Shown here piece by piece: positions 13,335 through 62,582 of a stretch of DNA of 64,000 nt. The position numbers were made by a program, and so were the translations under genes. The stretch spans positions 1 through 64,000 of the IMG/VR virus record IMGVR_UViG_3300028591_000171. One strand, 5' to 3'. How positions within the stretch are numbered: position 1 is the stretch's first letter; each line of letters starts with the position of its first letter. The DNA is from a virus. Lineage: Duplodnaviria; Caudoviricetes. The notes beneath the pieces were generated by a model. It made no database searches and was not told where the DNA came from. It saw only the letters and a list, made by a program, of their open reading frames with translations.

Positions 13335-15806
13335 ATGAAGATAATAGAGAGGATAGTTGAGTCTGATGGCTCTCCGAATCAGACCAATGACTTGTGGTTG
13401 AAAGCCAGCGGCGATAATGTCGCGCTTAAATACTTCTTTAACGGTGAGTGGAGATCTATCACCGACGGAAGCTCAGTCAGCAGCGATGATGTCGATAGGA
13501 TAATCTCGTTGACACAATCGGAGTATGACGGTTTGCCTGAGAAAGATTCTAAGTCATTGTATATCATGGCTGACACAGGTAAGATAGCTCTTGGCTCGTC
13601 AATGATATCAGGCGCCGATGGTGTCGGTGTGCAGTCTGTCGTGCAGACAACAGTGTCTCAGGAGGATGGCGGGACCAATGTCTGGACTATCACTCTCACT
13701 AACGGGCAGACGTCAACGCTTCGGGTTAAGAACGGTAATCAGGGGAACTCTGGTTACTCTGGAGCCGCAGGCGAGCTGGAGGTCGTTAACAACCTTACCG
13801 ATGGTGGTGCGACAGCCGCCTTGTCAGCCGAGATGGGAGCAGTGCTGGAAGGGGAAGTCAGTCAGTTACGCTCCGAAGTAAACACATTAGGAGACAGTAT
13901 AGGAACTGGGGCCACAAGAATAATAACATCCTCGTCTTTTCCCAACCCAGGCCGTTATCTTGCCAACGGCACATTGTCGCAGACTGGCTGGCATCATACT
14001 GACCAGATTCCGATAGGGCCTGGTGAGGTTGTCAAGACAAAACTCTATCAAGGTACAACCCCGTCAACTACCACACCCGCAATTATTTTTTATGATAGCA
14101 ACGGTGGCGTTGTCAGTTATGTACTCGCCGATGGCGGTGGTATCCATACTCAGGATTACACGACGCCAGCAAACACGGCATCCTTCCGTGTCCAGACTCT
14201 CGGAACCGCAGAGGAGATGGCACAATGCTATTATTCGCTTGATAGGTCATTTGTTGGAACGAATGTGCTGGATAAAAGACTTGAGATAGTTGAGCAAAAT
14301 CTCAATAGTGTGGCATCTTTGTTCGACTCAAAACTTTTTACAATTACAGGCTTTATTGGTGGAACTGGTTCGGTAAAAACAAATAATGGGTACAAACGCA
14401 CAGATTATCTTGATGCGTCAAATATCATTTCGGTCTCCATTTATATGGCAATCTCGGCATATCAATCGCTTGCCGCTGTCGCTTGGTTTGACGCAAATAA
14501 GGCATTCATATCATGCGAAAAAATGAGTGATGCCAACCCTGCGATTGTTACGTCGAAAAGACCAGACAATGCTCGATATGTTGTTCTATCCACCAATGAC
14601 GCAAATGTGTCATTGGTAAATGGAGAGGCGATTGTCACTTCGATCAATACCACGGTGTTTTTATCCCCGATTGGCAATGATAGCGCAAAAGGCGAGGAGA
14701 CGTCAGCATTGAAAACTTCGTTCGCCGCTAAATCCCATGCCGCGAAAGAGATCATTTTTCTGCCAGGCGATTATGATAACTTTGTCCTTGATTTCTCCGA
14801 CTTTGAGAGATATGTTTTCAGAAACGGAGCAAGGCTTATTTGCGGGATAAAGTTCGCAGAAGCCGAACTTGCGTCCGGGTATAGCCGAGTGTATCAGGTG
14901 ACTTGTGATTCAGAGCCTACGGCAAAATTCTTATGGCAGCATGATGTAGCGGATGCCGACACCTTGATACCATCCTCCGAGTACCTCCCAATGTATCATT
15001 CTGGCAGAACCCACAGACTTTCGTCAACAAGACTATATAAGGCATCAAGTGTCGCGGATATTGAGTCGGAAACATCAAAATATACTTGGTTCTGGGATAA
15101 TGGAGTCCTTTACTTTTCATGCCCGTCCACAAACTTTGCAACAAATCCCATTGTTATTCCAGATGTTTTAGGCAACCAATATGTTGCGACAAAGAAGAAA
15201 AACATTTCGGTAACAGGGATGCGATTGTACTATCGCAGGTTTAATAGCCGTCGGATCTCTGGCCACTTTGATGGCGGTTTTGTGGGGTTTGTTGATGGGA
15301 CTTGCTTTGGCTTCGACTCAAACGAGTACCTTGAGATTAACAATTTCGAGGCCGCAGGAGGTTCTACTGATGGATTCGGCGGCGGCTTTGATGAAAACGT
15401 AAGTTATCAGATTATTATGAAGAATTGCTATGGCCATGATAATGCTGACGACGGAGAATCCGGGCATGTGAAAACAAACATGACACAGTACGGCGGCCTA
15501 TATGAGTATAACGGAAGTGGTGTCACTCCGGCTGTCGGAGCTAATGGTTCATATTATAACACGATTTGTCGAAACAATGGAGTGTATGACTGGACGGTTG
15601 GATATCAAGATGGGAAGGGATTTTCCGCCGCTGCCGGGTCAGATCCAAACACCAACCTCCTTTGTGTGGGTTGTCTCTCGATAGGAAATAAGATAGGCTA
15701 TGAGGCGAGCGCTGGATCAATTTTCTTGAACTGTGTGTCAAAGGATGACGATGTGGATTTTCGTGGCACGGCTCAACAACTTAACTGTGTCACATTATCA
15801 ACATAA
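13335..15806 (+). CDS. Fibre/spike protein with C-terminal right-handed beta-helix (pectin-lyase-like) module
   Basis: Fibre-type N-terminus, two repeated beta domains, and parallel beta-helix signatures (NCYGHDNADDGES.H, GGLYEYNG, NTICRNN). A depolymerase role is inferred. Confidence 0.7.
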   Translation: MKIIERIVESDGSPNQTNDLWLKASGDNVALKYFFNGEWRSITDGSSVSSDDVDRIISLTQSEYDGLPEKDSKSLYIMADTGKIALGSSMISGADGVGVQSVVQTTVSQEDGGTNVWTITLTNGQTSTLRVKNGNQGNSGYSGAAGELEVVNNLTDGGATAALSAEMGAVLEGEVSQLRSEVNTLGDSIGTGATRIITSSSFPNPGRYLANGTLSQTGWHHTDQIPIGPGEVVKTKLYQGTTPSTTTPAIIFYDSNGGVVSYVLADGGGIHTQDYTTPANTASFRVQTLGTAEEMAQCYYSLDRSFVGTNVLDKRLEIVEQNLNSVASLFDSKLFTITGFIGGTGSVKTNNGYKRTDYLDASNIISVSIYMAISAYQSLAAVAWFDANKAFISCEKMSDANPAIVTSKRPDNARYVVLSTNDANVSLVNGEAIVTSINTTVFLSPIGNDSAKGEETSALKTSFAAKSHAAKEIIFLPGDYDNFVLDFSDFERYVFRNGARLICGIKFAEAELASGYSRVYQVTCDSEPTAKFLWQHDVADADTLIPSSEYLPMYHSGRTHRLSSTRLYKASSVADIESETSKYTWFWDNGVLYFSCPSTNFATNPIVIPDVLGNQYVATKKKNISVTGMRLYYRRFNSRRISGHFDGGFVGFVDGTCFGFDSNEYLEINNFEAAGGSTDGFGGGFDENVSYQIIMKNCYGHDNADDGESGHVKTNMTQYGGLYEYNGSGVTPAVGANGSYYNTICRNNGVYDWTVGYQDGKGFSAAAGSDPNTNLLCVGCLSIGNKIGYEASAGSIFLNCVSKDDDVDFRGTAQQLNCVTLST
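13854..13876 (+). repeat. Left cassette-boundary site, copy 1 (GAAGTCAGTCAGTTACGCTCCGA)
   Basis: Identical 23-mer at 60895-60917; 48/56 identity over 13821-13876 vs 60862-60917. Encodes EVSQLRS. Confidence 0.9.
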
Positions 15807-15811
15807 TCACA

Positions 15812-15834
15812 TAGCCCCCTAATCGACTGAGTTA
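15812..15834 (+). repeat. Right cassette-boundary site, copy 1 (TAGCCCCCTAATCGACTGAGTTA)
   Basis: 21/23 identical to 62560-62582. Confidence 0.85.
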
Positions 15835-15854
15835 ATTTAAATACGTTACTAATA

Positions 15855-15889
15855 AAAACCCCTGTCAGATAAGTTCTGGCGGGGGTTTT
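15855..15889 (+). terminator. Intrinsic terminator
   Basis: AAAACCCC-TGTCAGA / TCTGGCG-GGGGTTTT hairpin after the fibre operon. Confidence 0.75.
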
Positions 15890-15974
15890 AGCATTGTTGT
15901 CTTTCATCAGTCTGCCATGATAATTTCGTGTCAGAGTCGCGCGGCTCATGATGTGAAATTTAAAACTAAAAATT

Positions 15975-16883: not shown

Positions 16884-16894
16884 TACTCTGAGCC

Positions 16895-44541: not shown

Positions 44542-47500
44542 TTATTTGAAAATATTGAACATGTAGTTGTAGTCTTTCATATCTATGACTTTCTGCACGT
44601 TATATAATGGTGTTATTGTATAAAGCGCTTTCGCTGATTTGGACCAGCCTTTATATCTTCCTGAGTTTATCTCATCCCAATATCCTCCAATATTGAAGAT
44701 CTGTGTGATGCCCTCAAGTGTTTTGACTCCAGCCGCCGGCGACTGTACCAACGTGAACACGTTTTTCACGAATGTCGGAGGCCAAGGTGACAGTGCCCCA
44801 GTCTCGAGGTTGAGCCTTTTTGCTGAATAAGCCAAAAGTCTCCGCGCCCTGTCATCGTCGTCTTTCCAACCTTTTGTCATCGCGCAAATAAGCCACAACA
44901 TACAAAGTGTGCTTATTTGGGTATACGCTATCCTTAAGGCTTTCTTATTCTCTGGAGTTAAATGATTGTTGTTTATCGCCTCTTTGATGCTCATGTTCTT
45001 CATGTCGTGTAACGTCCCCTGGAAGAACTTGAACAGGCTGTAATAAACACCCTCCCTTTGAACCCCCATCACGGCGTCATAGTAGGGTCTTGAGTATAGC
45101 TTATTATACATCCCCCACATCCATTGCCTGAACTGATTGAAAAACTGTAGCAGGACATGTTGGTTTATATTTCCCTTTTCAGCTTCGGAGTATCCGCCAT
45201 GCATGCCGGCGTTAATGTTATTGATATAAATGGCAAGACCTTCAAATAACTTATCCTTGTCCTCTTTCTTTACTATGCCATCCGAGAATCCCCTTCCTAC
45301 CAGAAACGCTTTTTTTGTGTCCAGGAATTGTATATCGTCATCGAGCTCAAGGCGCCACCCGTTTTTATCATGGACTTGCTTTATCACATCATAAAGACTA
45401 ACCTCGCTATTGTCGCTCAGTCGTTTCACTTTCTCGTGTCTCAATACCATCAGCATGCCTGACGTGTGGAGATAATGCTCACCCATACTGTTGAGGAAAA
45501 ACACGTTTCCCCTTCCCATCACTCTTTTCAACGCGCTGGGATTGAAATCCTTTTCTCTCATATCCCTGAAGAAATCCTCGCTCGAGTTGAATTGGTTTAT
45601 AAGCATATACATCTTGTCATGCCTGTTGGCGGAATTGAAATGTCCCATATATTCCGGGAGCAGTTTCCCATACTCCTTTTTAGCCCACGCGTAATCTTTC
45701 ATCCCAAAATATCTTCCTGTTGTGGCTTCCTGGAGTATTTGTGTCTCTCCCTGCGTGATATTGGTTATACCGGACAACACGTTGAATCCGATTCTGGATA
45801 CTGACGTTAACTTTAACAGGACATTCGCTATCGCGTCTCCGCTTACAGCCTTCCCTTTGATTCTGATAGGCAAATCACCAATCCGTTTCTTCGTCTCGTT
45901 AAAGAATTGCCTGTCTATGTATGTGGTTATAGCCTTGGCTGTATTTGTTCCTTCTCCACGTTTTGTCAACTGCCTGTAATATTCCCTGCCAGCCTGGATA
46001 AATGAATCAACAACGGGAATTCCACCATCGGTTTGTCTGACCTCATAGCCTTCATCTGTCGTGTCAGATACATAGTCTTGCATCAAAGACATCGCAGCCG
46101 CCAACTGGTTCATCTCGCCGTAATTGACAGCCATCGCTATATAGTTAAACATGGCATGGGTCCCGTCAGTGCTGAGGTCCTTTTGGTTCTCAAGTTTCTG
46201 TATGAAGTAGACAGGAACTCTTTTGATTTCCCTATTATTGAAATCAAGTGTCGTCTTGCGAGCCCTGTTTCCATAATCCATATTATCAGATGTGATGCTG
46301 TATTGCTTTTTCCAATTGCCCCATATTGTCCTTAACGCGTCTTTCGCTCCGTTATCGAACATTTGCGAGATCTCTTTACGGACCTGTGGAGCATTATACA
46401 ATCCCTGCATCGCAATTGGGAGCAGGCTATCCATCGCGGCTTTCATGCTTATCACGGAATCGTAATAGTTTTTCTGCTCCTGGGACCATCCCGACTGGAA
46501 GCCTCTCACTATATACATATCACTACCATCTTCCGCGTATTTTCTGGGCATCATCTCGGTGCGTCGTATACCGTTGGAGTCCGGCTCGCCAACCTCAATT
46601 TCCTCGGTATGCTCAGCATCCCATTTGTTTATCTGTTTTTGGATCGAGTAGTAATCCAGGTCGTCTCTCTCATCGAGGCTTTTGATAAACTCATTCCTGT
46701 CACGCTCGAATTTGGCGAAATCAACAGGGGCCACATAATATCCCGTAGGTATCCCATTCTCGTCTTTCTGATAGATGAATTCGCTGTCGTGTCCAGCCGC
46801 TCTCAATCTGGCGTCGGCTTCCTGGAGTTTGGCGCATTCGTTATTAATCCTGCTGTTCCGTTTGGCTTGCTGGCTTACGACGATCTTATGGATCACGTTC
46901 AGAAGGGTGTTCCTTGAGTCTCCCGCTGAAAACACGTTAGTGTCCCACCACGACGTGTCACTGCTGGCATATCTGAGAATAGTGTCAACCGATTCGAATT
47001 TAGCCCTGTCAGATGCCTCAAATGTCTCAGGCGCGTTTCCCATGTCGCCGTAATAAAGAGTGATAAGTTGTTTCAGGACGGCATATCTCAGCTGCTTCAT
47101 CTCGCTGTTTAGCAAGTTGAGTTTATCAAGGTATTCCACGGAGAACTCCGCTATTCTCTCGGCGGCTTCCGGATCCATATTAACCTCTCCTTTCTCAACG
47201 TAATCCGGCATTTTTCTCAGCGTTGTAAGATATGAAGAGTATCCGTTGATGACTGTGCTTATACGTCTCACCAACTCAGCCTCTTTACGTATCATATTAA
47301 GGTCAGTCGTGCCGTTATGGACAAACCCGAGCGTCTTGGACTCCCTTGTTATTTGTGCGGCCTCGTTACCGATATACCATAATATCCTGACGCAAGCGTT
47401 ATAATATCTTTGTTTATCAATATCATCACGGATGTTGGCTATTGATTTTCGCAAATCTTTGGTGTCAATGTCAGACTGCGTATTCTGAAGGATATATAGA

Positions 47501-48675
47501 CGTTTTGACAACATAGCCTCACCTTCCTGCGTAATCTGCTCAATCTTCTGGACCTGCTGGTTAAGATCGAATAGGTCCTCGGACTTCTCTATCAGCTCTT
47601 TGTCTATAACAGTGTCGATGTCATCGTTCTCGACCATATCAGCGATTGGTCTTAAGGCATCAGCGGCGTTGAATATCAAATCATCGACCTCATCTGTCGA
47701 GACATTCTTCCTGAATAAGTTTTTGACGTATTCCCACAGGCGCTTCAACCTGGTTATTATATCCTTCCTATCGCTGATGGAGTCTATTGCCGATGTTTGT
47801 TCCGATCCGGTGGAATACATGCCGCTATCCCTTTTTAGCATAGCGGCCAAAGCTTTACCCTCAGCCTCATCCCTCAGTCTCTCAGCCACAGGAGTCTGTC
47901 CTTTTGAGTATCTCCTGTAATAGCTGTCATATTCACTCCCCAGGACATTTCTGACCACATCATCTGTAAACAGGTTATCAAGACGCGTTTTCATCTCGTG
48001 TCCGCGCAATCCGGCTAAAACAAGGTGAGACACCTCCTCCGGTATCGAGTCTAATCCCTGTTCATTATTGGCCACCTTTATGACCGTTTTCAGATTGTCG
48101 ACATTTCGTTCCGCGTTCTTGGGACTGAATACAGCCTCGTATGACGTGTCGTCCATAAAGCTGACGTCAAATCCCATCCTATTGATCAGGTCTATCAATT
48201 TGGTGTTGAGACGCCTTCTTTTCTCATCGCGATCAGCCTCGGCTATATTTGTCGGAGTCTTTTCCTTGCGCTCAATTTTATATCTGCCGTCATTTGTCTC
48301 GGTTGTGATAGCGACTGATTCTTTGGATAATGAGTTATACCTCTCTTCTCTCGACATCGCGTCAGACGCCGAATCAAACACGGCATCTGAGCCATTATCT
48401 GACACTATCCCGGTATCTTTGGCTAATATATCGTCTTGCTTCGCTCTTGTGAGAGTGTCATCAAGTCCGATTATTTCCCTAAGCGCCTCGAATGTAATCT
48501 CACCATTCTCGTCAACGGGCTGGTCTGAGAACTCACTATTAAATAAATCTGTCCTCGTGAATCCCCATAAGCGTTTCGCGGCCTCCCTATCTTTAATGAT
48601 AGAGTTTATATCACGGAAAAGCTGGCTTGGCTTGCCGTTCCTAGCCCTCGGTATATACAGGCATTTGTTACTCAT
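44542..48675 (-). CDS. Large virion-associated protein co-encoded with the virion RNA polymerase
   Basis: 1377 aa, coupled to the upstream giant gene (1 nt gap); helical. Confidence 0.7.
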   Translation of the reverse strand: MSNKCLYIPRARNGKPSQLFRDINSIIKDREAAKRLWGFTRTDLFNSEFSDQPVDENGEITFEALREIIGLDDTLTRAKQDDILAKDTGIVSDNGSDAVFDSASDAMSREERYNSLSKESVAITTETNDGRYKIERKEKTPTNIAEADRDEKRRRLNTKLIDLINRMGFDVSFMDDTSYEAVFSPKNAERNVDNLKTVIKVANNEQGLDSIPEEVSHLVLAGLRGHEMKTRLDNLFTDDVVRNVLGSEYDSYYRRYSKGQTPVAERLRDEAEGKALAAMLKRDSGMYSTGSEQTSAIDSISDRKDIITRLKRLWEYVKNLFRKNVSTDEVDDLIFNAADALRPIADMVENDDIDTVIDKELIEKSEDLFDLNQQVQKIEQITQEGEAMLSKRLYILQNTQSDIDTKDLRKSIANIRDDIDKQRYYNACVRILWYIGNEAAQITRESKTLGFVHNGTTDLNMIRKEAELVRRISTVINGYSSYLTTLRKMPDYVEKGEVNMDPEAAERIAEFSVEYLDKLNLLNSEMKQLRYAVLKQLITLYYGDMGNAPETFEASDRAKFESVDTILRYASSDTSWWDTNVFSAGDSRNTLLNVIHKIVVSQQAKRNSRINNECAKLQEADARLRAAGHDSEFIYQKDENGIPTGYYVAPVDFAKFERDRNEFIKSLDERDDLDYYSIQKQINKWDAEHTEEIEVGEPDSNGIRRTEMMPRKYAEDGSDMYIVRGFQSGWSQEQKNYYDSVISMKAAMDSLLPIAMQGLYNAPQVRKEISQMFDNGAKDALRTIWGNWKKQYSITSDNMDYGNRARKTTLDFNNREIKRVPVYFIQKLENQKDLSTDGTHAMFNYIAMAVNYGEMNQLAAAMSLMQDYVSDTTDEGYEVRQTDGGIPVVDSFIQAGREYYRQLTKRGEGTNTAKAITTYIDRQFFNETKKRIGDLPIRIKGKAVSGDAIANVLLKLTSVSRIGFNVLSGITNITQGETQILQEATTGRYFGMKDYAWAKKEYGKLLPEYMGHFNSANRHDKMYMLINQFNSSEDFFRDMREKDFNPSALKRVMGRGNVFFLNSMGEHYLHTSGMLMVLRHEKVKRLSDNSEVSLYDVIKQVHDKNGWRLELDDDIQFLDTKKAFLVGRGFSDGIVKKEDKDKLFEGLAIYINNINAGMHGGYSEAEKGNINQHVLLQFFNQFRQWMWGMYNKLYSRPYYDAVMGVQREGVYYSLFKFFQGTLHDMKNMSIKEAINNNHLTPENKKALRIAYTQISTLCMLWLICAMTKGWKDDDDRARRLLAYSAKRLNLETGALSPWPPTFVKNVFTLVQSPAAGVKTLEGITQIFNIGGYWDEINSGRYKGWSKSAKALYTITPLYNVQKVIDMKDYNYMFNIFK

Positions 48676-48676
48676 A

Positions 48677-51600
48677 TTAGCAGATATCTAGTTCGTTAAG
48701 AATATTGTCTATGGTATTGATTACAGATTCGGCTGAGTCTGAAGATATTCCTTTCCTGTTCATGAGATCAACCAACGCGTCTGTGGGTCTGTTCGCCAGA
48801 ATCCAGTTGGCGGTTTGTATGATGAGGTTATCCATGGCTGACGCCGGGTTTATGCTGGCCTTTTCATCCGATTCCATCACATCATATATCTCATCATAGA
48901 CATCCTCTTCCATTGAGTCGATCACTTTGTCAGACAATGTGTAGGACCTGTATGATTCCCTGGCTCCAGATAAAGGATACATACGCTCACCGAACAGCTC
49001 GGCTATTTCCTCTTTACTCGCTTCCCCGTGGAGTTTCCTTTTTGCGATTGAAATGATATCTCCGATCCTGACCGGTTGCCAGGCTCTATTCCCGCTTCTC
49101 TCAGCATCCTCAGGATTCTGTCCGCCATCGTCTGGCTCATTTTCGTTTTCTCTTCCATTTGATAAACTATTTATAACATTATAGACATCATAATCACTTA
49201 TATTATCCTTTATGATAAAGTTGGCTGCTACCTTGTCTGACTTTATTAATCCCGCGCCACTCAATTCGCCCATGCTGGACTTAACTGTGTCTATTCCATT
49301 CATCATTGACGCTCTCAACGCTGTCATATCCGAAGGGTTGATATCTACGAAAAACCGCAATTCTTGCCTATTCCCATTGTATTCCCATTCCAGATGTGTT
49401 TTATTAGCGGCTGATATGACGCTTTCTTTATTCTGGGCGTATGCCTTATTATTGAGCTTCACGACAACCTCAACGGCGTTACATTCCTTTATATCTGATG
49501 TGTAAGTCTTTACTACAGGATTAATTGGTTTGTCGCTCAACGCATCCATTATGGCGGCGGTCTTGATAGCCTCACGATGCTGATCCATGGCGGAACCGTT
49601 TGGCTTGAGGTTTATGGAATACGTCGGTTTCCCGTCCTTAACCATTCTCTCAACCTGCCCATCTGACATTCCGAACAGGCTGGCTATCTTACTAATCCTC
49701 TTAAGGTGTCTTCTGCTCTCCAGGAATGCCGGCTCTCTATATGCCAACGGATCACTGGCTAATGCGTTCGGTATAGGGACCTCGACGTTATCGTCACCAT
49801 AAGGGTTGGTTGATATGAATGTCCCGGAATATGTGTCGTCGTTGACGTTGGAATTTAGATACGCGGCGAATCCGCTTTCTTCAGCGTCATCTTGCATAGG
49901 CTCTATCGCGCTTGTCTCGTCTGATGACAGATTAGGGTCTGGGGCTTGTTCGCCCGTGTTGGCGAAAAGGCTCTCTCCATTATATACATCACCGAGTTTC
50001 ACATATTCCAACATCTGGTTTGGTATACCCATTGGATCAACCATATCGACGCTTACAAGCAATTTATAATCATCGCCTTTCTTCACCCTTTCAACAGAGG
50101 TGTTGTTCACGAGGAAGAAATTACCGTCAACGTTTATCACCGGCATCGTTATGGTCAACTCGTTTTCACGTCCAGATATCCAGTTCTTTATCTTACCACC
50201 GAGTTTCTCATCTATCTCAAGGACAATTGTCTGACCACCCTCAACCTCAGCCTGTGAGAATGTGACGACCTGTCTCTTCGGCTTGTTCTCGAAATACGGG
50301 ACTATGCCTTTATCCCTTTGTGAGTTATTAAGGCACACTAAAGCCGTCAACTCGAACATGTCTTTTTCAGACATGGATGTCTTGTCGGCGTCAAAGAACG
50401 CTCTTGTGTAATTCGGTATCGCCTCCTTTATCGCCAACGGCATAACGGATATAGGTGTTGTGTTACTGAATGACGTCGACCTTGCCAAGAAATGTTTAGT
50501 TATATTTATGACAAAATCGTGTGTCTGAGGATACCTCAAAAGGTCAGCCCAGTCTTTTTGGAACATCTCAAGCTCAGGTCCCCTCAGGTAATTGATATCT
50601 GTTTTCAACATACCGAATTGTCTGTAACCATCTTTCGAATCGAGATGACCTATACCCTGTATGAACGAGTTATTCTTTATGACGGTATTATAGAACGTCT
50701 CATCACTCTTTTTAATATCATCAAGGGTGTTTGTGTAGTATTCCTCGAAATCGGTTGTATAGAATTTCACTGTTTCCGGATTAGTGAAATCCTCTATCCT
50801 GTTTTCGCCAAGGAACAGCAAATAACTCTTATACCCTTCGTATAATGTATTTAACTTGTCAACATTGTCTCCGGTCGTATCGCTGTCAAGAATACCGAGT
50901 TTCCTTGCCGCCTCAAAGAACGTCTCATTATACGTGTGCATATTCTCGAGGATGATCTGGTCCGTCATTTCCTGTTCACCGAGGATAACCCTTCCCACAT
51001 GAGGGAACATCGTGCAAAGCTTTCCGAACTCATCCTGTGTGAATTCATCAGATATTGAGATGTTATCAGGTAGCTTTATTGTACTATTCTCGCTGTTAAG
51101 GTTATTGACGAGGCGTTCAATTTTCTTGCGGGCTACAAGCCTGTCGAAAAATGACGAGCCTTTCATCGCGGTCATTGAGTTGTATCTTGCGAATGAGTCC
51201 AGATTCCTCACTTTCGCCTCTTTACCTCTGAGCGTATCAAGGACTTGAAGTATTTTAAGCTTGTCGTATAATGTCTGGCTTTCAGGATCACTAATGTTTC
51301 TGACGAGATCGGAATAACGTAACGTGATATTCTGATCATGTTTAACGTCATTGATTTTAGCTACAAAATCCGTTTGCCAATTTTCCCATGACATGTTATC
51401 AGGTTTCTCTGTCTCGGCAAGCTCACTCAACACATCATCAATGGCGCTATCCATGCCGCCATGTCCGAACGCTGAGCTGATATTTATCTTATCCATAACT
51501 CGCCTTACGACAGGCTGAGCTATAAACATCCTCGCGACATCGCTTGATATACCAAGCCTATGCATGAGTATCAGGATAGGCATTGACTGTTGCGTTATGT

Positions 51601-54600
51601 TGAGCCTGTATAGAGCCGCATCCTTCGCGGCGTCTGCCGAAGCTCCCACATATTTTCCTATCTCGGCGCTGATTAACTTGTTATCCATATCGTTAATAGC
51701 GTCAAGTGTCACAGCGCCGCTAATTCTTTTCTCTGTTTGATGCTCGGGGTCTGAGTCATTTATGACTTTGAACGATTCTGTCACTGATTTGTCACTGCCC
51801 TCTTTGAATAACAGGCGTGTCGTGTTCTCTATCCTGCCAGAGGATACGCCTTCGTCATTATATACGGATATGAACGCGTGGGCTGTGACACCGACAGCGG
51901 CTATACCTATCATCTTGCTGGCATCCATATTCTGTTTCCTCAACAAAACGTCTGTTTTGGGGTCCATAAGATCCATATCCTCGACATCCTCGCATGCCGA
52001 TTTGAGCCGTGATTTGCTCATCCCATCAAGGATGTCCTTGTCGTATCCGTTCGCAAGAAGAGTAACGTAATACGACATCGCGCTCAAGTCATCAAAATCG
52101 CCAGGACGGAATCCCTCAAGTATTCCTGAGTTTGAGCCTAAAGCAGCCCATTGCAGGTCGAATATCTCCTTATCAACATCATAATCATCAGAACCATCGA
52201 TAGGTCTCAATTCGACAAAATCAGTATCTATATCAAAGTCGGCTCCAGTGAACAGAGTTAGCTCTTTAGGATACTTGGCAACGCTTCCGGCCCATGATGG
52301 GGTGAATCTCTTGATGCGGCATTTCATTATGGAGTATTTCATCTCCGTAGGGATACGGTAACAGATAGCGTCGAATGCGGAGTCTGGTACGACCTTATGG
52401 ATCTCATCCATGTTCCAAGTCCCGTCGCTATTGAGGAACCTGTCGACACCTCCATCCGCCCTCTCGAGCATCCGAAGCACATAGTCAGGCATAGGAGCCT
52501 CTATCTCGAAATATTGATAGTTGCCGTCATTGTCAAATACTATACGTAGGTCGTCGGCGCTGGCCCATGACGTCGCCTGCACCACAACGCCGCCATTTGT
52601 TTTCTCCTTATAGTATGATTTTCTTATCTTCGAGTAGAGCATTGCCTCGACAGAAAGCTGCTGGCTCGGATCGTCAAGAGGGAGGACAAACTGGTCGACA
52701 CCATCCCTGTTCACTATTGATATCGAACGTCTCATATCAGACGTGAATCGCTGGTCTGACGCCATCGCAGACTTTAAAGTGTATGACAATCTGTGTATCC
52801 TGCTCGAATGCGGCATGTTAAGCCCGAGACTCCTCCTGAACTCTTTTTCGGAATTCATTGTCTTTTTGCTCAGCGCTTTGAAATACCTGTTTTTCAGTTC
52901 TTTGCCTGTTATCTTTTTACCATTAGGCATCACGCAGGTCTCGTCATCCTTGATGTTGTTGACGCATAGGATTTTCATTTGGGCGCCAAGTGGCTGCGCG
53001 TTATGTTTGAAGTGCTCAGGTTTCTCCTGTACTATCTTATAATCCTCTACATCATATTCAGTGACAGCTACTGGATTATCAGCGCGTCTAACCTTCTTGC
53101 CATCTTTAAGCACATAATTCCCGTTCTTGTCAGTCACATATAATGCCTCACGTAGAGCCTTTAATGTATCTTCAGCCGATAGCCCTTCGAGTTCTATCGC
53201 GTCATCATTCCCGCCGATCTTTACGGCTGAGTCGAAATTAGCGGTATCAATCCCTGTCAATTCATTATCCTCAGCTGTCTCCTCCAGGAATTTGGCTATC
53301 GCCTCAGCCTGTGAGCCAAGTTTCCCTTTTTGCTGGAACGCCGTTATGTATATCAGGGCATATTCTGAGTTCTTATGTTGCACAGGAACAGTTATCTGTC
53401 CGTCACCACGACCAGCCCTGTTCATGTTGACCATTGAATAGACGAAAGGCTTTTGTGGCTGACCGAACACATGGAGATAGTCGTATATGTCGAGTTGTTT
53501 ATTATTCTTTATCCTCTGATAGACAGCCTCGTCAGTATATATTTTAACTTCCTTCCCGTTTATTGTCGTGACACCATTGATGTCCTCGTCTCTTGAGTTT
53601 GACCTCGTCCATTTCCCCAGGCCAACCATTCTCTTGCGCAACCCTGTCAATCCTGTGAAAGCCTGTCCATCGGTAGCGTCAAATTTGGTGAGCGACTTCA
53701 GCGTGTTATCGACGGCCTTCTCCAAGACCGCTCTTTCGTTGTTGTCCGTTATTTTTTCGAGTTGCTTCCTGAGCGCTGATTCTATAGCGTCGTATGACGG
53801 GGCTTTTATTTTCTTTGTCCTTATTGTTATTGACCTGTATTTCCCGTCAGTCACTCTCGAGCCATGTATTTTAGCTGTCGGGTCTATGGGATATCCTGCG
53901 GATACGACCTGCGCGTTACGTTTCTGGAAGTTGGTGGTGTTCTTATAGAACGCCAGGTCAACATCGAATATTTCCGACATATTGGCTTTAGCCAGCCAGT
54001 TATTGTAAACGAATTCCTCGATGTCATTCTGGAAATTCGCGAGTTCCATATAATATCTGTGAACTCTCGTGTCTTTGCCGTAAGTCTCGTCGGTGTATCC
54101 GTCTTTCAGAGCCATCTGTTTGGCTGCCTCAGAGCTGAATTCATATAACCTCTTCGTATAACCTATATCACCGCTGTGCCATTCCATCATATTGCCTATG
54201 AGGTATTTCAGCGTATCAATCTTGATGTTGCCATTATCGCCGGCGTTAATCGTCTTCTTCTCATAGGCTCCGATGCTCTTCATGTAATCAGAGAATTTGT
54301 CACGCAACTCTGACATGTAGTCATGGAACACCTTTTTGTATTCAGAACTGGCCTTGGGCGTTATCACTCGTACAGGTTTGGTTGACAGATGAGAGTTGAA
54401 GATTCTGTCAACAACATATTTCCCCAATTCCGAACCTTTCTCTATCTCGTTGTTGATAAACTTGCTCATGAAGAACGAGGCTCCGGTGTTGCGGAATATA
54501 TATTTACCGTCTTTCACAACATCGTTGATTGAGACTTTCTTCTTGTCTCTCATCTTATTGATGACAGCCTCTTTCTCCGGGGTGTTTATTTCTATATCGT

Positions 54601-57088
54601 AATTGTCTACTCTCGTGCCGGTTCCAAACGCCGCGAATCTAGCTACATTCTCGGCTCTTCTTATCTCTTGTGAGAAGAAATCAACGGCCTTATCTGCTAT
54701 TATGACATGATAATTATCTTTAGCCCAACTGACAGAACCGTCAATATCCTCAATATTGTTATTTGAATATCTTCTACCGCGAATGAGTGAGTTCCTTGGT
54801 TTGTCTGACGCTATCAACGATCTGTACCAAGCCGTCCCAGGCATCTCGCCAGCCTGGTTGTGATAGTCGTTCATTATGCTCAACGCATAAGTCAGGTCGG
54901 ATAATTCAGTGTAATCCTTCCCATTTACTATTGGCTGCTCGGCGTATTCTATGATATTGCCGTTATTATGGTATATATCCTCAAGCCAATCCGAGTAGAA
55001 ATGTATGTCTTTATCAGCTTTATCCTCATTCGGTTTAATGAACCACAGCGTATCCTTGCCGTATTTGCTTTCTATATACTCACGCACTTTTTGCCTGTCG
55101 GTGTTTTTCAGTCTTGATATTATCGTGCCGATTGATGACGGGTTATTTCTCGAATAATATGATTTCCCGTTCATGTAGGCGGCGGACTCCTGCGAGTCGG
55201 TATCAACTGATGTTATCAGGTTTATCAGGTTTGAATATCCGTTTACTATTTTCCTGGTATATTGCCTTGTCGAGGCGTCTTTCCTCATAGACATGGGGTT
55301 GGTTACGGGAGTGTCCGGTATAGAACCATCCTCAATCGCGTCGCCCCATTCTATAAGTGATCTCATGATTGAATCAGCTTCCCTCTGTAATTTGAGTATC
55401 TGATTCCCAATAATGGTTGTGTTGTTCAGCCTTGTTTGGTTGTCATGTTTAGTGTTGTCATAATTACCAGTCCTTGAATACGCGTGTATCGCAGTCTTTG
55501 ACATATCAATGCCTAAAGCCTTTAATATGTTTGACAACTTTTTGGTGGCGTCTTCTATCAACTTGTTCACCTCCTCAGCTGACGCGCCGCTATTTGCCAT
55601 GCCTAACGCGTTCCTTACTATACCTTCAACCGACTTGTCGTCTTGACGTATTCTACCGACGGGGGAGGATAATTGTTTTCTTAGCTGGCGTATATTATCG
55701 AAACTGATAGCTGTATTCTCGAACATCGGCCCAGACATGCTTGCGAACATGCTCCTGACCTTGTTCATCATCCTGTCATATTTCCCTCCTGTATTGGCGT
55801 CCCTGTTTTTGAAACACATGTCACCATTATTGGCGGATGTGTATGTCGTCCTGAATCTTGTGAACGGTTTGTAAACAGACTGGAAGAACAATGTTCTCAA
55901 TTGCTCTTTTCTGTCAGAGGACATGTCGACGCCATTCATGTCAAGCGCGTCATTCGTGTCAAGCATCTGGATAATCTGGGTCATCCATGGGTAGACCTCT
56001 TGCTTGCTTCTGATAGCGTTAAAAACCTCGTCAGAGTTGGCACAATTGTCACATATCTTATGCAGGATATTCAAGGCCTTTGACACTGATATGTATGTCG
56101 GCAACCCGAACCCGAACTGGTCAGTCCTGAAATTCCCGTTGCTGTCTATATCCCTGCAATTAGCGAGGAGTATTTTTACCTCGGGGACTATTTTGGAATA
56201 CACCGATTTGTTCTGGTCGGACACGCTGAACAGACTGACAGGCATTGTCTCCTTCTCGACGTCATCGTCATCCTCAGGCCCATCATTCTCGTCATCTGTG
56301 TCATTCCTTTCAGCGGATGTTGATGTGGACCCGCTTGCCTCGCTTGTCTCATTAGGGTTCACTTTTATTCCCTCGTCTCTGAAAAGATTACCACCGTACA
56401 TGTAAATCATGGTACGGAAATTATTTATGGCGGTCTTTAATTCTGATGCCAAGTCAGAATTACCATCTTTCTCAAGTTCGGCGATCCTGTCCTTGAATTC
56501 CTCTACTATAGTCGAGATTATATATCTGTTGGCTTTAGGGTCATTGTAGTATAAAGCCCTGCTGTTTTGCTTGGATATACCATTCTCGTATCGCTCGTTT
56601 CGGTCCGTGTCTAATATTGTTATAAGCTCAGATATCCTGCGGCACATATACTGTCCGAGGAATTCCATTCTTTTAGGGCTCTTAAACCCCTTAAGCAGTG
56701 ACGCTATTTTAACTGACGATATCTTGCTCAGGTTGACAACATCCTTAATGTCGTCTTTATAGTCAATCAGATCACTCACAATCTCGTCATTGACGTCGCG
56801 CTCCAAAATCTCTCGCAAGTCATCTTTTATATCCGCGAGCTTTGAACCTCCTATATACCCGAATATGTCTGATGATTTTATCAGCTGTTCTGTATATGTT
56901 TTTAACGCGTCATTAAACTCTTGATATGACTCAAGATCATCCACTGTCATCTTATCGTAATCGAGAGCGTTATTATTGCTCTTTGCGATATTTAGGATAT
57001 TCCTTGCCTCTTTGTCGGATATCCTATACTTTTTTGCCACTTGCTTAGCGAGCGGATGGAACGTAGGAATGCACCACTTTTTTGTCAT
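48677..57088 (-). CDS. Virion-packaged DNA-dependent RNA polymerase (crAss-like)
   Basis: 2803 aa; catalytic-type motif GADFDID and RIPTE upstream, as in the phi14:2 gp66 family. Confidence 0.85.
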   Translation of the reverse strand: MTKKWCIPTFHPLAKQVAKKYRISDKEARNILNIAKSNNNALDYDKMTVDDLESYQEFNDALKTYTEQLIKSSDIFGYIGGSKLADIKDDLREILERDVNDEIVSDLIDYKDDIKDVVNLSKISSVKIASLLKGFKSPKRMEFLGQYMCRRISELITILDTDRNERYENGISKQNSRALYYNDPKANRYIISTIVEEFKDRIAELEKDGNSDLASELKTAINNFRTMIYMYGGNLFRDEGIKVNPNETSEASGSTSTSAERNDTDDENDGPEDDDDVEKETMPVSLFSVSDQNKSVYSKIVPEVKILLANCRDIDSNGNFRTDQFGFGLPTYISVSKALNILHKICDNCANSDEVFNAIRSKQEVYPWMTQIIQMLDTNDALDMNGVDMSSDRKEQLRTLFFQSVYKPFTRFRTTYTSANNGDMCFKNRDANTGGKYDRMMNKVRSMFASMSGPMFENTAISFDNIRQLRKQLSSPVGRIRQDDKSVEGIVRNALGMANSGASAEEVNKLIEDATKKLSNILKALGIDMSKTAIHAYSRTGNYDNTKHDNQTRLNNTTIIGNQILKLQREADSIMRSLIEWGDAIEDGSIPDTPVTNPMSMRKDASTRQYTRKIVNGYSNLINLITSVDTDSQESAAYMNGKSYYSRNNPSSIGTIISRLKNTDRQKVREYIESKYGKDTLWFIKPNEDKADKDIHFYSDWLEDIYHNNGNIIEYAEQPIVNGKDYTELSDLTYALSIMNDYHNQAGEMPGTAWYRSLIASDKPRNSLIRGRRYSNNNIEDIDGSVSWAKDNYHVIIADKAVDFFSQEIRRAENVARFAAFGTGTRVDNYDIEINTPEKEAVINKMRDKKKVSINDVVKDGKYIFRNTGASFFMSKFINNEIEKGSELGKYVVDRIFNSHLSTKPVRVITPKASSEYKKVFHDYMSELRDKFSDYMKSIGAYEKKTINAGDNGNIKIDTLKYLIGNMMEWHSGDIGYTKRLYEFSSEAAKQMALKDGYTDETYGKDTRVHRYYMELANFQNDIEEFVYNNWLAKANMSEIFDVDLAFYKNTTNFQKRNAQVVSAGYPIDPTAKIHGSRVTDGKYRSITIRTKKIKAPSYDAIESALRKQLEKITDNNERAVLEKAVDNTLKSLTKFDATDGQAFTGLTGLRKRMVGLGKWTRSNSRDEDINGVTTINGKEVKIYTDEAVYQRIKNNKQLDIYDYLHVFGQPQKPFVYSMVNMNRAGRGDGQITVPVQHKNSEYALIYITAFQQKGKLGSQAEAIAKFLEETAEDNELTGIDTANFDSAVKIGGNDDAIELEGLSAEDTLKALREALYVTDKNGNYVLKDGKKVRRADNPVAVTEYDVEDYKIVQEKPEHFKHNAQPLGAQMKILCVNNIKDDETCVMPNGKKITGKELKNRYFKALSKKTMNSEKEFRRSLGLNMPHSSRIHRLSYTLKSAMASDQRFTSDMRRSISIVNRDGVDQFVLPLDDPSQQLSVEAMLYSKIRKSYYKEKTNGGVVVQATSWASADDLRIVFDNDGNYQYFEIEAPMPDYVLRMLERADGGVDRFLNSDGTWNMDEIHKVVPDSAFDAICYRIPTEMKYSIMKCRIKRFTPSWAGSVAKYPKELTLFTGADFDIDTDFVELRPIDGSDDYDVDKEIFDLQWAALGSNSGILEGFRPGDFDDLSAMSYYVTLLANGYDKDILDGMSKSRLKSACEDVEDMDLMDPKTDVLLRKQNMDASKMIGIAAVGVTAHAFISVYNDEGVSSGRIENTTRLLFKEGSDKSVTESFKVINDSDPEHQTEKRISGAVTLDAINDMDNKLISAEIGKYVGASADAAKDAALYRLNITQQSMPILILMHRLGISSDVARMFIAQPVVRRVMDKINISSAFGHGGMDSAIDDVLSELAETEKPDNMSWENWQTDFVAKINDVKHDQNITLRYSDLVRNISDPESQTLYDKLKILQVLDTLRGKEAKVRNLDSFARYNSMTAMKGSSFFDRLVARKKIERLVNNLNSENSTIKLPDNISISDEFTQDEFGKLCTMFPHVGRVILGEQEMTDQIILENMHTYNETFFEAARKLGILDSDTTGDNVDKLNTLYEGYKSYLLFLGENRIEDFTNPETVKFYTTDFEEYYTNTLDDIKKSDETFYNTVIKNNSFIQGIGHLDSKDGYRQFGMLKTDINYLRGPELEMFQKDWADLLRYPQTHDFVINITKHFLARSTSFSNTTPISVMPLAIKEAIPNYTRAFFDADKTSMSEKDMFELTALVCLNNSQRDKGIVPYFENKPKRQVVTFSQAEVEGGQTIVLEIDEKLGGKIKNWISGRENELTITMPVINVDGNFFLVNNTSVERVKKGDDYKLLVSVDMVDPMGIPNQMLEYVKLGDVYNGESLFANTGEQAPDPNLSSDETSAIEPMQDDAEESGFAAYLNSNVNDDTYSGTFISTNPYGDDNVEVPIPNALASDPLAYREPAFLESRRHLKRISKIASLFGMSDGQVERMVKDGKPTYSINLKPNGSAMDQHREAIKTAAIMDALSDKPINPVVKTYTSDIKECNAVEVVVKLNNKAYAQNKESVISAANKTHLEWEYNGNRQELRFFVDINPSDMTALRASMMNGIDTVKSSMGELSGAGLIKSDKVAANFIIKDNISDYDVYNVINSLSNGRENENEPDDGGQNPEDAERSGNRAWQPVRIGDIISIAKRKLHGEASKEEIAELFGERMYPLSGARESYRSYTLSDKVIDSMEEDVYDEIYDVMESDEKASINPASAMDNLIIQTANWILANRPTDALVDLMNRKGISSDSAESVINTIDNILNELDIC

Positions 57089-58841: not shown

Positions 58842-59176
58842 TAGTTCTTAAGAGCAGTATATTCCCCTTGGGCAAGTTCTCCGCGATCAATCTCTTCGGT
58901 ATCGTGATACTCAAGAAGAAATCTGTCGAGAGGAAATCAGTGCAGTCAATCATCAGGCTTTTGAGGCACGAGGCGATACACACGGAGCAGATGAAAGAGC
59001 TGTTGTTCATCGGATTCTATATCATTTATGTTCTCGAGTGGTTATACAGGCTCGTCTTCCACACGAAAACAGCTTACAAAGGATTGTCATTTGAGGTTGA
59101 GGCGATATCCAATCAGGGAACTTTAGGTTATCTCACAAGCAGGAGACATTTCGCGCAATGGAGAAGAAAAGTCTGA
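58838..59176 (+). CDS. HExxH-motif membrane-associated protein
   Basis: LLRHEAIHTEQMKELLFIGFYIIYVLEWL. Confidence 0.6.
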   Translation: MIVLKSSIFPLGKFSAINLFGIVILKKKSVERKSVQSIIRLLRHEAIHTEQMKELLFIGFYIIYVLEWLYRLVFHTKTAYKGLSFEVEAISNQGTLGYLTSRRHFAQWRRKV

Positions 59177-59679: not shown

Positions 59680-59804
59680 CAATCAAATCACTGTTCGATA
59701 GGATAGTTGACAGACCTAAGCCTTCGGCTCCGAGAGCCGGGTTCAAGGCGAGCGGATCAAGGTATGACAAGGGCGGAAAGCTTAAAGGGAAAAAGACCGT
59801 ATAG
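59658..59804 (+). CDS. Small basic protein (48 aa), not in the ORF track
   Basis: MAEKRRLTIKSLFDRIVDRPKPSAPRAGFKASGSRYDKGGKLKGKKTV*, read manually. Confidence 0.5.
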   Translation: MAEKRRLTIKSLFDRIVDRPKPSAPRAGFKASGSRYDKGGKLKGKKTV

Positions 59805-60156
59805 GCTGATGCTGGTGACGCTGAAGGTGATACCGATGCTTTTGGCGTTATCGGCTATGACCGGCATGTTCCTGGATTTTCTCGGGATTGACAGTTCCGT
59901 GCTCTCTTTTGTCGGAGGTGTGTCGTTGTTCCCGCTGCTTTTCCTTTATCTGGCCTCTTATGTTTTTTGTTTCTGCGAGTATCACAGGATGTTCCTCCAT
60001 TATGTCGTGGCGAACAACCTGCTGACATATGCGGATTATTATATAGGAATCCCGATAAACGACAGGAGCCTTTTCATGGTCCATATCATTCTTATCGGGA
60101 TATTCCTTTTCCTCGTGTTGTATTTCTATAGGACTGAGAGATGTTGCGGACAATAA
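59764..60156 (+). CDS. Multi-pass membrane protein
   Basis: Three to four hydrophobic segments; ATG at 59764 preferred over TTG at 59707. Confidence 0.65.
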   Translation: MTRAESLKGKRPYRLMLVTLKVIPMLLALSAMTGMFLDFLGIDSSVLSFVGGVSLFPLLFLYLASYVFCFCEYHRMFLHYVVANNLLTYADYYIGIPINDRSLFMVHIILIGIFLFLVLYFYRTERCCGQ

Positions 60157-60434
60157 GGAGACTGCTTCTCGATATTGTCGACGACATAGACGCCGGCAAC
60201 TCCAACATGAGCGAGGATGAGGAGATGGAGCTTATCCGTGTCCTTAAGGAACTCTCCAGGAAGGACAGGCCCATGAGCAAGTATCAGGCTTACACCTATC
60301 TCAATGTCAGCAGGGCGACCTTTGACAATATGATAAGGGACGGAAGGTTGCCCAAAGGAAAGAAGGTCGCCGGCTTCAAGGAGCTGATGTGGTTCGAGAA
60401 AGACTTGAAGGATATCGCCGGTAAGAGCAAGTGA
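60141..60434 (+). CDS. HTH DNA-binding protein (AlpA/excisionase-like C-terminus)
   Basis: SKYQAYTYLNVSRATFDNMIRDGRLP...W pattern. Confidence 0.65.
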   Translation: MLRTIRRLLLDIVDDIDAGNSNMSEDEEMELIRVLKELSRKDRPMSKYQAYTYLNVSRATFDNMIRDGRLPKGKKVAGFKELMWFEKDLKDIAGKSK

Positions 60435-60516
60435 TTGTGTCTCCCGGTGTAACTGAATCGCTTACAAGTGTGATATGAGTTCTGATTTTACATACTTTTA
60501 CCCAAAATATATTGTT

Positions 60517-62562
60517 ATGGCAGGTATTGTTCAATTGAAAGACGAGAGCGGGAATTCTGTATATCCTGTGACAGGAGCTAATCTTGTAGATGGTTTGTCT
60601 GATGTCGCCAAGAGCGGTGATTATAATGACTTGGAGAATAAACCGACTATACAGACGATTAACACTGTTAATGTGTCTGTTGACAATAATACTGGGACCC
60701 CGTCTGCTACTGGTACTGTATCGGGTTCTACGATCACACTTAATTTCCATAATCTAAAAGGACAGCAAGGGCAACAGGGTCAGCAGGGAAATACCGGATC
60801 GTCAGTGGACTATCCCTATGAACTTGTGAACAACCTCATCACCGATGACGCCACGAAAGGTTTGTCAGCCGCGCAGGGTGTGGTGCTGGAGGGCGAAGTC
60901 AGTCAGTTACGCTCCGAGTTGGATGGGAATGAACTTATCGCAAAAACATCCTTTATCGGCGGGTGGTATATTTATAAGACAAACCCATATTACAAGACAA
61001 ACAATACGGCCCGCGTGGGCGTGGGGGAAATAACACTTGATGCCGGCGATATAATTTCCCTTACCGATTATTCAGCTTGTAGGATGTATGTCGGATATAG
61101 GGATGCGAATGGCTATAACACACCCGGTGCTTGGTTGACCTCTGATTATACCGCTCCGGTCTCCGGAATATATGTAATAACACTTGACGGCATCCCCGCG
61201 GTACCCGTGTCTGACACATCGGATTTGACTAAATATCTCCGGGTTATTCGAGGCTTATCACAAGTATATCGTAACGAGGTCACTCTCAATGAGCTGGAAT
61301 CAGATGTCGCAAGAAAATCCACAAATAATGACTTGTCAAATCAACTTTATTGCGAGAGTCTGACACAAGGCGTTGAGTATGAGCTGGGAAATATCCTTAT
61401 CACGAACTCCGCTTGGACGTATGAGGATTCCGTCAATCGGGTGCGTACACCATCAGACTATATTCTCCACTTGTTCCCAGGTGACAAAATCACTCTATCA
61501 AATTACTCCGGCGTGAGGTTCTATGTCGGCGCGAGGTATGTTTCCGGGAGTATGTCAATGGCTGGATGGCTGACGAGTGACTACATTGTGCAGGAGGAGG
61601 GGTATTTCTGCGTTCTTGTGGCGAACACGACGGACACGCAACAGTTATCCCCGGATACACTCGGACAACTGATTAAAGTTGTTAGGAATACCACCGTGCG
61701 GTCAATGATCGGGAGTGGCGCGGCATCGGTGATATTCAACAATACCGGGACAACGCAAGTCATAGGGAATCGGATTGATTTGGTGGGGCAAAATTACTCC
61801 GTGGCATACATCGGACAAGAGGGGGCGGGTGTAGACACAAGGCAAGGTGGCGCAATATTCGGTGATTACCTTTTCCAATTCCATAACACTCTCGAATCCA
61901 TTGTTGTGTTCAAATTGTCTACGGCTACAACCGTGCAGACGTTTTCCTTGACAGCCCAGCCAGATTGTCATGCCAATTCCGGCGGTTTCGGAAAAACTTA
62001 CCATACGGCGGGTGATCCTTTCCCGCTTTTGTATGTGTCATCGCAGTCGGAAAAAAAGATATATGTTTACAGGATCACAGGCGAGGAGGGTAATTGGTCA
62101 ATCGCATTAGTTCAAACTATCACGGTTAATGTGGATTTCTATCTCCCGAATATTGCCATAGACGCATGGAATGAACGTGGAGTCCTATTTGGCTATACAA
62201 AAAATTCCTGGTCTGACACGACCGCGAAATCCCGTATATGTTGGTTTAATCTGCCGCCACTATCCTCTGGGGATGTGACGATTTCCGACTTCAATGATTA
62301 TTTCACACTTCCATACATATACGCACAACAGGGAGCATGTGCGAGATTTGGCAAGATGTACCTGTCCTTCGGCAATACGCAACAAGGGCAGGCGACTGGT
62401 GGTATTATAGTGATAGACTACACGAATAAGAATGTCGATAGTTATCTTGACCTATATGCCATCGCTCCAGGATCGTTTGAGCCGGAGGCAATCGGTATTT
62501 GGGGCGGGGGACTAATCGTGACATCGGCAGGTGGAGGAGTATATAAATTGACAGTCAATTAG
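60517..62562 (+). CDS. Fibre/receptor-binding protein with C-terminal beta-propeller-like module
   Basis: Short GQQ triplets, ELVNNL..DDA..GLSA.QG linker, two repeated GWLTSDY domains, then QGGAI.GDYLFQF / HAN..FG / FPLLYVS blades. Confidence 0.7.
   Translation: MAGIVQLKDESGNSVYPVTGANLVDGLSDVAKSGDYNDLENKPTIQTINTVNVSVDNNTGTPSATGTVSGSTITLNFHNLKGQQGQQGQQGNTGSSVDYPYELVNNLITDDATKGLSAAQGVVLEGEVSQLRSELDGNELIAKTSFIGGWYIYKTNPYYKTNNTARVGVGEITLDAGDIISLTDYSACRMYVGYRDANGYNTPGAWLTSDYTAPVSGIYVITLDGIPAVPVSDTSDLTKYLRVIRGLSQVYRNEVTLNELESDVARKSTNNDLSNQLYCESLTQGVEYELGNILITNSAWTYEDSVNRVRTPSDYILHLFPGDKITLSNYSGVRFYVGARYVSGSMSMAGWLTSDYIVQEEGYFCVLVANTTDTQQLSPDTLGQLIKVVRNTTVRSMIGSGAASVIFNNTGTTQVIGNRIDLVGQNYSVAYIGQEGAGVDTRQGGAIFGDYLFQFHNTLESIVVFKLSTATTVQTFSLTAQPDCHANSGGFGKTYHTAGDPFPLLYVSSQSEKKIYVYRITGEEGNWSIALVQTITVNVDFYLPNIAIDAWNERGVLFGYTKNSWSDTTAKSRICWFNLPPLSSGDVTISDFNDYFTLPYIYAQQGACARFGKMYLSFGNTQQGQATGGIIVIDYTNKNVDSYLDLYAIAPGSFEPEAIGIWGGGLIVTSAGGGVYKLTVN
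60895..60917 (+). repeat. Left cassette-boundary site, copy 2
   Basis: Identical to 13854-13876. Confidence 0.9.
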
Positions 62563-62582
62563 CCCCCTAACTGACTGAGTTA
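62560..62582 (+). repeat. Right cassette-boundary site, copy 2 (TAGCCCCCTAACTGACTGAGTTA)
   Basis: 21/23 identical to 15812-15834; TAACTGACTGA is the exact reverse complement of TCAGTCAGTTA in the left sites. Confidence 0.85.

Follow-up and report, generated by a model that had tools for sequence, protein, structure and literature searches.

The DNA analysed here, hereafter the window, comprises positions 1-64,000 of the 78.6-kb virus record IMGVR_UViG_3300028591_000171, which is 80% complete, and carries two fibre genes whose C-terminal modules are bounded by the same pair of recombination-type sites. PHROG matches for terminase, portal and capsid assign the genome to the crAss-like phages, and it also encodes giant open reading frames (ORFs) of an RNA-polymerase block. 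Fibre/spike gene 1 (13335..15806, plus strand, 823 amino acids) fuses an N-terminal stalk, with matches to PF24243 and PF22337 that are both below cut-off, in frame to module 1; fibre gene 2 (60517..62562, plus strand, 681 amino acids), at a distance of 47 kb, fuses a different N-terminal stalk, with a PF22337 match above cut-off, in frame to module 2. Common to both genes is a PF22337-type linker of 92 nucleotides at 74% identity, ending in an identical 23-mer. An earlier, sequence-only reading of the window had pointed to this in-frame 23-mer encoding EVSQLRS, to a 21/23 match at the gene ends and to unrelated modules between them, and all three observations are exact: the 23-mer lies at 13854-13876 and 60895-60917, the right-site match at 15812-15834 and 62560-62582, and the two modules are unrelated in DNA sequence. 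The right-site match greatly exceeds what chance would give (about 1.6e-10 per offset, about 1.6e-6 over 10,000 offsets). The left 23-mer lies inside the homologous linker, the rest of which is identical at 45/69 positions, and still exceeds this background (P about 0.004), with third codon positions being identical at 7/7 inside the 23-mer versus 11/23 in the linker outside. The span 13821-62582 is no single element, holding two separate cassettes within a crAss-like genome.

Module 1 (13875..15813, plus strand) measures about 1.94 kb from inner arm to inner arm, and the beta-helix suggested for it was borne out for its C-terminal part, which matches right-handed beta-helix clusters with scores of 0.93-0.94 and a TM value of about 0.77. 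For module 2 (60916..62561, plus strand, about 1.65 kb) a match to PF21311 at 0.86 keeps the suggested propeller-like tip as a lead only. Searches of the PDB by sequence were empty for both modules. P0001, the top match considered as a full-length homologue of module 1, was discarded, matching only the stalk repeats and carrying no sites.

Comparison with relatives resolves each site into 34 bp: a 6-bp spacer is flanked by a conserved outer arm, whose consensus in the direction leading out of the module is TAAYTGACTGASTT, and by an inner arm that is less well kept. Left and right sites are one element in opposite orientations, so that each module contains the two inner arms and the outer arms belong to the backbone of the phage; left sites are in frame (SQL-xx-EV), and right sites sit at the stop codon in opposite orientation and with a different spacer. 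In fibre gene 1, left site L1 (13855..13888, plus strand) consists of the outer arm 13855-13868, the spacer CGCTCC at 13869-13874 and a degenerate inner arm 13875-13888, and is translated through as VSQL-RS-EV. Right site R1 (15800..15833, plus strand) consists of the inner arm 15800-15813 containing the TAA stop, the spacer GCCCCC at 15814-15819 and the outer arm 15820-15833, a TC variant present also in L125 and L154; a terminator-like hairpin, read directly from the sequence, follows immediately outside (15854..15889, plus strand). In fibre gene 2, L2 (60896..60929, plus strand) has the outer arm 60896-60909, the spacer CGCTCC at 60910-60915 and the inner arm 60916-60929, and R2 (62548..62581, plus strand) has a well-kept inner arm 62548-62561, the spacer GCCCCC at 62562-62567, the edge of which is overlapped by the TAG stop of the gene, and a perfect outer arm 62568-62581. 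Two arms around a 6-bp asymmetric core are the established layout of simple sites of tyrosine recombinases. The spacer is the invariant part in the arrays described below and its inner edge is where the sequences of relatives part; it is most likely the crossover region, as judged from these comparisons, and strand cleavage would be expected there. TCAGTCA, named as crossover core by the sequence-only reading, is thereby replaced, and its TAAC-N7-GTTA form describes merely the outer arm of this spacer type; as a site core the palindrome was rejected, being present in only 3/29 distinct strong right sites. At L002:700-800 two right sites with different spacer types lie 59 bp apart after a fibre-like gene without detectable left site.

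A search with the stalk protein gave 158 homologues, many of which diverge immediately after S-Q-L into SGNH hydrolases, metallophosphoesterases or lyase-like domains. In loci picked by stalk protein alone, kin included and therefore not independent, DNA constraint exceeds that of the EVSQL peptide: Leu is TTA in 11/11 motif loci (background in the same genes 9%) and Ser is AGT in 5/5 loci with Ser (background 12%). The right site recurs in relatives and is linked to the left site (counts 6/1/2/25 among 34 complete-gene loci, Fisher p=1.4e-4); in one of the two exceptions to co-occurrence the left site lies earlier in the gene. A stalk search with a single N-terminus in viral contigs and a tblastn search with the stalk in GenBank phages gave no matches, and L001 was set aside as a chance 17-mer in an unrelated phage.

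The modules are exchanged between genomes precisely at these boundaries. In the close relative L005, identity is about 90% as far as the left spacer and resumes at about 98% with the right spacer; between them, the counterpart of module 1 is a 3.0-kb metallophosphoesterase module unrelated to it; the flank of R1 with its terminator-like hairpin is about 98% identical, identity beginning at the site. Breakpoints equally sharp are found at the sites of L007 and L016, and the siphovirus-like contigs L097, L099 and L100, with stalks 98-99% identical, each carry a different module at the same boundaries. Among stalk pairs at least 80% identical, several of them 98-100% at the amino acid level, 41/41 have modules without BLAST similarity. 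Conversely, the same module occurs on different N-termini: module 2 recurs in protein P0422 with 544/553 identical amino acids from SQL of EVSQLRS onward, on a different stalk, and P0148 and P0150 have unrelated stalks and a module 85% identical in nucleotides starting at the inner arm. Since the stalk of P0422 has no shared PF22337-type linker, homologous recombination in the linker does not account for this event. The site pair thus bounds unrelated C-terminal modules in crAss-like as well as siphovirus-like phages, and some modules take in an extra downstream gene (L006, L016, L047, L125).

Left and right spacers form fixed pairs over 28 records, with 0/20,000 permutations being as extreme, likewise after removal of close kin. 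The pairs, each given as left/right, are GAGGCC/CGGCCC (n=12), GGCCAA/AACCCC (n=7, plus 2 variants), CGCTCC/GCCCCC (n=2, the pair of both window genes), GGCCTC/GACCCC (n=2) and singletons (n=3). They cut across phage types, as in the crAss-like L004 and the siphovirus-like L006. In whichever orientation they are compared, left and right spacers are mismatched at 2 or more of the 6 positions, by which excision and inversion would be blocked and only like-with-like crossovers allowed. The left spacers GGCCTC (L004, L006) and GAGGCC (L007, L016-L018) are reverse complements, and the GGCC core shifts by 0-2 bases among spacer types.

Directly repeated right-type sites, with one spacer throughout, divide up runs of 40-100-codon ORFs. 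Such arrays are present in L009, L097, L084, L104, L105, L106 and L125; the window has none. The ATG of an array ORF often follows the arm directly and its stop lies within the next inner arm. The last site of an array has the best outer arm (0.7 versus 5.0 mismatches, p=0.001), as would be expected if circles integrated at the terminal site. Array sites show no attC hairpin (z -1.9 to +2.5, the single outlier being an artefact of a run of N) and none has both R'' and R' boxes. At L009:5560-7060 and in the early-gene region of L105, away from any fibre gene, same-spacer sites enclose integron-like stacks that reach about 7 tiny ORFs. A 45-codon cassette ORF (L097:10251-10398) is 56% identical over 25 amino acids to part of an ordinary early gene at genome positions 65688-66431, outside the window; by this resemblance, array cassettes may derive from fragments of early genes that were captured from phages. 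Among the 101-kb crAss-like contigs L125-L127, the assembly of L127 begins exactly at a right site, upstream of which L126 has a different sequence; populations may thus vary at the array.

Just past the right site in L033, L081, L101 and L109 lies a convergent gene for a 336-amino-acid tyrosine recombinase without arm-binding domain, and in a 101-kb crAss-like phage left site, array and recombinase occur together. As an independent test, ten non-self records were picked by the recombinase protein only: in 7/10 the gene adjoins the end of a fibre gene that has a left site, a right site or both, and wherever the right site is clear the stop of the recombinase gene is 65-104 bp away from it; in 3/10 it lies in the replication module, two of these three having sites in fibre genes elsewhere. 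A subclade located inside a VapE/SNF2 replication module with sites elsewhere comprises L113, L115, L116 and L128-L137. The family counts 602 proteins in one clade separate from arm-type integrases and is 65-80% conserved. Its catalytic residues R194, K217, H297, R300, H323 and Y332 are invariant in 71 sequences, and the predicted structure (pLDDT 86.6) matches XerA, lambda Int and Cre in a core-binding plus catalytic fold. Sequence searches with the protein gave distant matches only (<30%) in GenBank phages, no close match in 401 host-family genomes, spurious designed-protein matches only in the PDB, and no match to TIGR02224/TIGR02225 or to TIGR02249 (the IntI family). By its genomic linkage this arm-less recombinase is most likely the enzyme of the sites and would catalyse the exchange. 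In near-identical phages the gene just outside the right site is present (L033) or missing (L048/L083), the recombinase gene itself being gained or lost.

The window also contains the start of an arm-type integrase gene (63817..64000, plus strand, continuing to genome position 65067; PF17293, PF13102, PF00589) and an attP-like 3' half of a tRNA-Val (63580..63630, minus strand), which probably lies outside the cassette system. The tRNA-Val half is 98% identical over 50 bp to G054, a genome from the same family as a rumen Bacteroidales metagenome-assembled genome (MAG); this match and stalk-bearing rumen and horse Bacteroidales MAGs suggest the likely host family. As the arrangement stands, the tRNA-Val half beside the integrase suggests a temperate crAss-like phage; reviews regard crAss-like phages as non-lysogenic (PMC10136315, PMC12386605). 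The sequence-only reading had pointed to the phage's own integrase as a recombinase to be tried on the sites. We rejected this candidate because of its separate attP in tRNA-Val and the diversity of its family; it is probably not the cassette enzyme, the separate arm-less family being likelier. The tRNA-Val halves at attP hold hexamers equal to right-site spacers, namely GACCCC (window 63609-63614) and CGGCCC (L016:6158-6163); the latter is L016's own right spacer. The register is off by one base, and the agreement may be chance. Host dif or host invertase sites were likewise rejected, matches in 301 genomes of the likely host family, incomplete MAGs, being at control level and in unrelated contexts, and the two-arm site pattern was not found in 5 genomes of this family.

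We consider it probable that the modules are exchanged site-specifically by spacer-matched double crossover, a phage-borne reaction in which the arm-less recombinase would most likely act in trans. Two genomes of the same spacer type would meet in one cell, either by co-infection or when a prophage is joined by an incoming phage. A crossover between their left sites would form a cointegrate, and a crossover between their right sites would resolve it, swapping the modules and keeping the reading frame, so that every swap would regenerate an in-frame stalk-tip fusion and could change host range. Both loci of the window genome share both spacers, and the same two steps could swap tips between the phage's own stalks. 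Single right-site crossovers would add or remove small circular gene cassettes, yielding same-spacer stacks. Prophage residence would give site-bearing phages access to the recombinase in trans, as we suppose for the window phage. The double crossover between fibre scaffolds that the sequence-only reading had proposed for host-range cassettes is supported by these data, the module swaps mapping to the sites. Each of the three conditions under which that reading was to fall was checked and went in its favour: codon choice is constrained beyond the peptide, relatives possess the right site, and modules change at the boundaries.

Several observations weigh against this model. Neither a circular cassette nor a swapped junction was seen. 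Inner arms are often very degenerate, both left inner arms of the window included, and in L117 and L118 the recombinase is present with a diverged right arm only. One module is common to L094 and L096, which differ in spacer type, suggesting that spacer identity is not an absolute rule or that spacers may drift; in L096 (1930-1975) a short rearrangement shifts the frame of the shared module compared with L094, which is either real or an assembly error. The sampled loci are partly related, and p-values overstate their independence. Finally, the 336-amino-acid recombinase has no match in the 78.6-kb, 80% complete record of the window phage and was not found in five site-bearing phages that are 96-100% complete, of which four encode an arm-type integrase.

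These last findings support an explanation that we regard as unlikely, according to which sites and double crossover are the same and the enzyme is the resident arm-type integrase (63817-65067) or a host tyrosine recombinase, the arm-less protein being a mere frequent neighbour. The arm-type integrase of such phages, as in the window genome, is often 1-2 kb from the right site, and the likely host family encodes distant tyrosine recombinases. However, the arm-type integrases of site-bearing phages are only 22-56% identical to that of the window, yet the site is nearly constant, and because it is constant the conserved arm-less enzyme, whose family is predictive of sites, fits better than diverse integrases. 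G305 (98% complete) has sites and no integrase match, and L010 has an arm-type integrase and no sites. Against a host enzyme, the site is not above chance in the 301 host-family genomes and is unlike the predicted Bacteroidetes dif (PMC3025954).

An exchange through excised circles is improbable. Here the sites would be attL and attR of a non-autonomous integrative element, the module leaving as a circle by left-right crossover despite mismatched spacers in the style of Tn916 or CTnDOT and the empty outer-outer site being refilled by another circle. Outer arms are mutually inverted and inner arms likewise, as in B-O-P' and P-O-B', the module shared by L094 and L096 fits this view, and the Tn916 and IntDOT integrases tolerate mismatched overlaps. 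In contrast, among about 150 loci chosen by fibre genes, site patterns or enzyme neither an empty outer-outer site nor an excised circle was seen, the spacers are fixed pairs across unrelated modules when coupling sequences would be reshuffled with each insertion, and arrays retain one spacer throughout.

We give very little weight to an ON/OFF inversion switch or shufflon. The outer arms are an inverted pair of 11-14 bp, inversion would bring a stop soon after SQLGG, and fibre-gene shufflons are known in Bacteroidaceae phages (PMC13596623). Yet in the inverted sense the spacers mismatch at 2-5 of 6 positions, about 28 left-right pairs include no right-type spacer at a left position and no inverted module, and inversion cannot account for module replacement or direct arrays. 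The opposite strand holds no alternative tip, its longest open stretch being 102-111 codons, and every locus has one module per gene, in agreement with the sequence-only reading that this is not a classical shufflon. Fibre shuffling in crAss002 was set aside, not being in the paper. That no dedicated recombinase is involved is scarcely credible; the motif would then be a linker peptide under conservation or a signal in regulation, and homologous or micro-homologous recombination would produce the swaps as in T4 PeSL cassettes. The left site does follow the conserved PF22337 repeat of the 92-nucleotide linker, PeSL-mediated shuffling has been described (PMC2839356) and right-type sites often stand just before an ATG. 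Yet rare codons are fixed in the motif, which recurs at the stop in inverted, non-coding form; P0422 lacks the linker and still has module 2; a search around 12 sites found no Bacteroidetes -7 promoter box; and a recombinase gene is linked to the sites.

Some further features surround the two cassettes in the window. Upstream of fibre gene 1 lie a collagen-repeat fibre gene and genes with Ig domains (Big_2) (window 10816-12753 and 6904-10790), where no cassette sites were found. A small HTH_17-like ORF (window 60141-60434; E 9e-4, below cut-off) stands immediately upstream of fibre gene 2, and ORFs resembling it recur near cassettes of other phages. Giant minus-strand ORFs of 1377 and 2803 amino acids (window 44542-57088) face an ORF of 1885 amino acids, and the GC skew switches.

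In its organisation the system resembles the dif modules of Acinetobacter with their pdif sites (PMC13141974), which likewise have two different arms around a 6-bp spacer and inversely oriented bounding sites, replace single modules with left and right spacers kept (here with one cross-type exception, L094/L096) and alternate module and backbone segments, as in L004 and L006; cointegrate formation and resolution has been proposed as the route for single dif modules. It differs in that the arms are unlike XerC/XerD boxes, the polarity next to the spacer being reversed, the site is not found as chromosomal dif, a single protein encoded by phages is the candidate enzyme, the carriers are phages and not plasmids, the left site is translated to yield protein fusions and direct same-spacer stacks are common. 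With the shufflons (Rci/sfx of IncI1 pilV and the tail fibre of BV01-like phages, PMC13596623) it shares an in-frame site between the constant N-terminus and variable C-termini of a receptor-binding protein and an adjoining recombinase gene. Unlike a shufflon, the locus keeps no alternative tips in store and showed no inversions, its diversity being drawn from other genomes; BV01 has an unrelated 10-bp motif and local inverted cassettes (PMC13596623). T4-type PeSLs likewise are repeated short sites that partition small phage genes and drive modular shuffling (PMC2839356), but they consist of promoter plus stem-loop with no dedicated recombinase described, whereas the phage sites show no promoter box, an in-frame inverted partner site and a linked recombinase. 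Integrons (IntI, attI, attC) also stack small one-gene cassettes beside a tyrosine recombinase, with the best site at the recombinase end as in the related phages; here, in contrast, attC hairpins, paired R''/R' boxes and an IntI family match are all lacking, the spacer is invariant within 34-bp simple sites of the double-strand type, and the enzyme is usually encoded convergently. In engineered cassette exchange with heterospecific lox or FRT sites, two different spacers allow like-with-like crossovers only and result in clean replacement. The phage system would be a natural version of this, with spacer types shared across unrelated phages. Its logic is like that of Acinetobacter dif modules, its output like that of a shufflon and its stacks like those of an integron, and it departs from each in a defining feature.

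As a summary, the cassette system is real, widespread and apparently undescribed, no description of these sites or of the enzyme being found in the literature searched, which left most subscription papers outside its coverage. Tail-fibre mosaicism between unrelated phages is usually ascribed to illegitimate or micro-homologous recombination. With breakpoints on a defined 34-bp site and a candidate enzyme, the movement of receptor-binding domains between phages, a question of long standing, becomes directly testable. Reviews of crAss-like phages name only diversity-generating retroelements for tail variation (PMC10136315, PMC12386605), and the dif-module system has been presented as peculiar to plasmids of Acinetobacter (PMC13141974); an independent version in phages that makes protein fusions would widen the dif-module concept. 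Cassette exchange might also gain a tool in the small arm-less recombinase, which comes with several spacer types found in nature. On balance we lean towards the view that unrelated rumen-type Bacteroidales phages, crAss-like as well as several siphovirus-like groups, share one standard of site-specific recombination, in which the phage-encoded recombinase would be a public good that moves receptor-binding and capsule-degrading domains in frame from genome to genome and stacks small accessory genes, a few spacer types would set the trading partners and phages like that of the window would join without the enzyme. The recurrence of the sites in many unrelated phages of such bacteria, with the same tips on different stalks and often a dedicated recombinase close by, makes it most likely that these phages exchange host-range modules out of a common pool.

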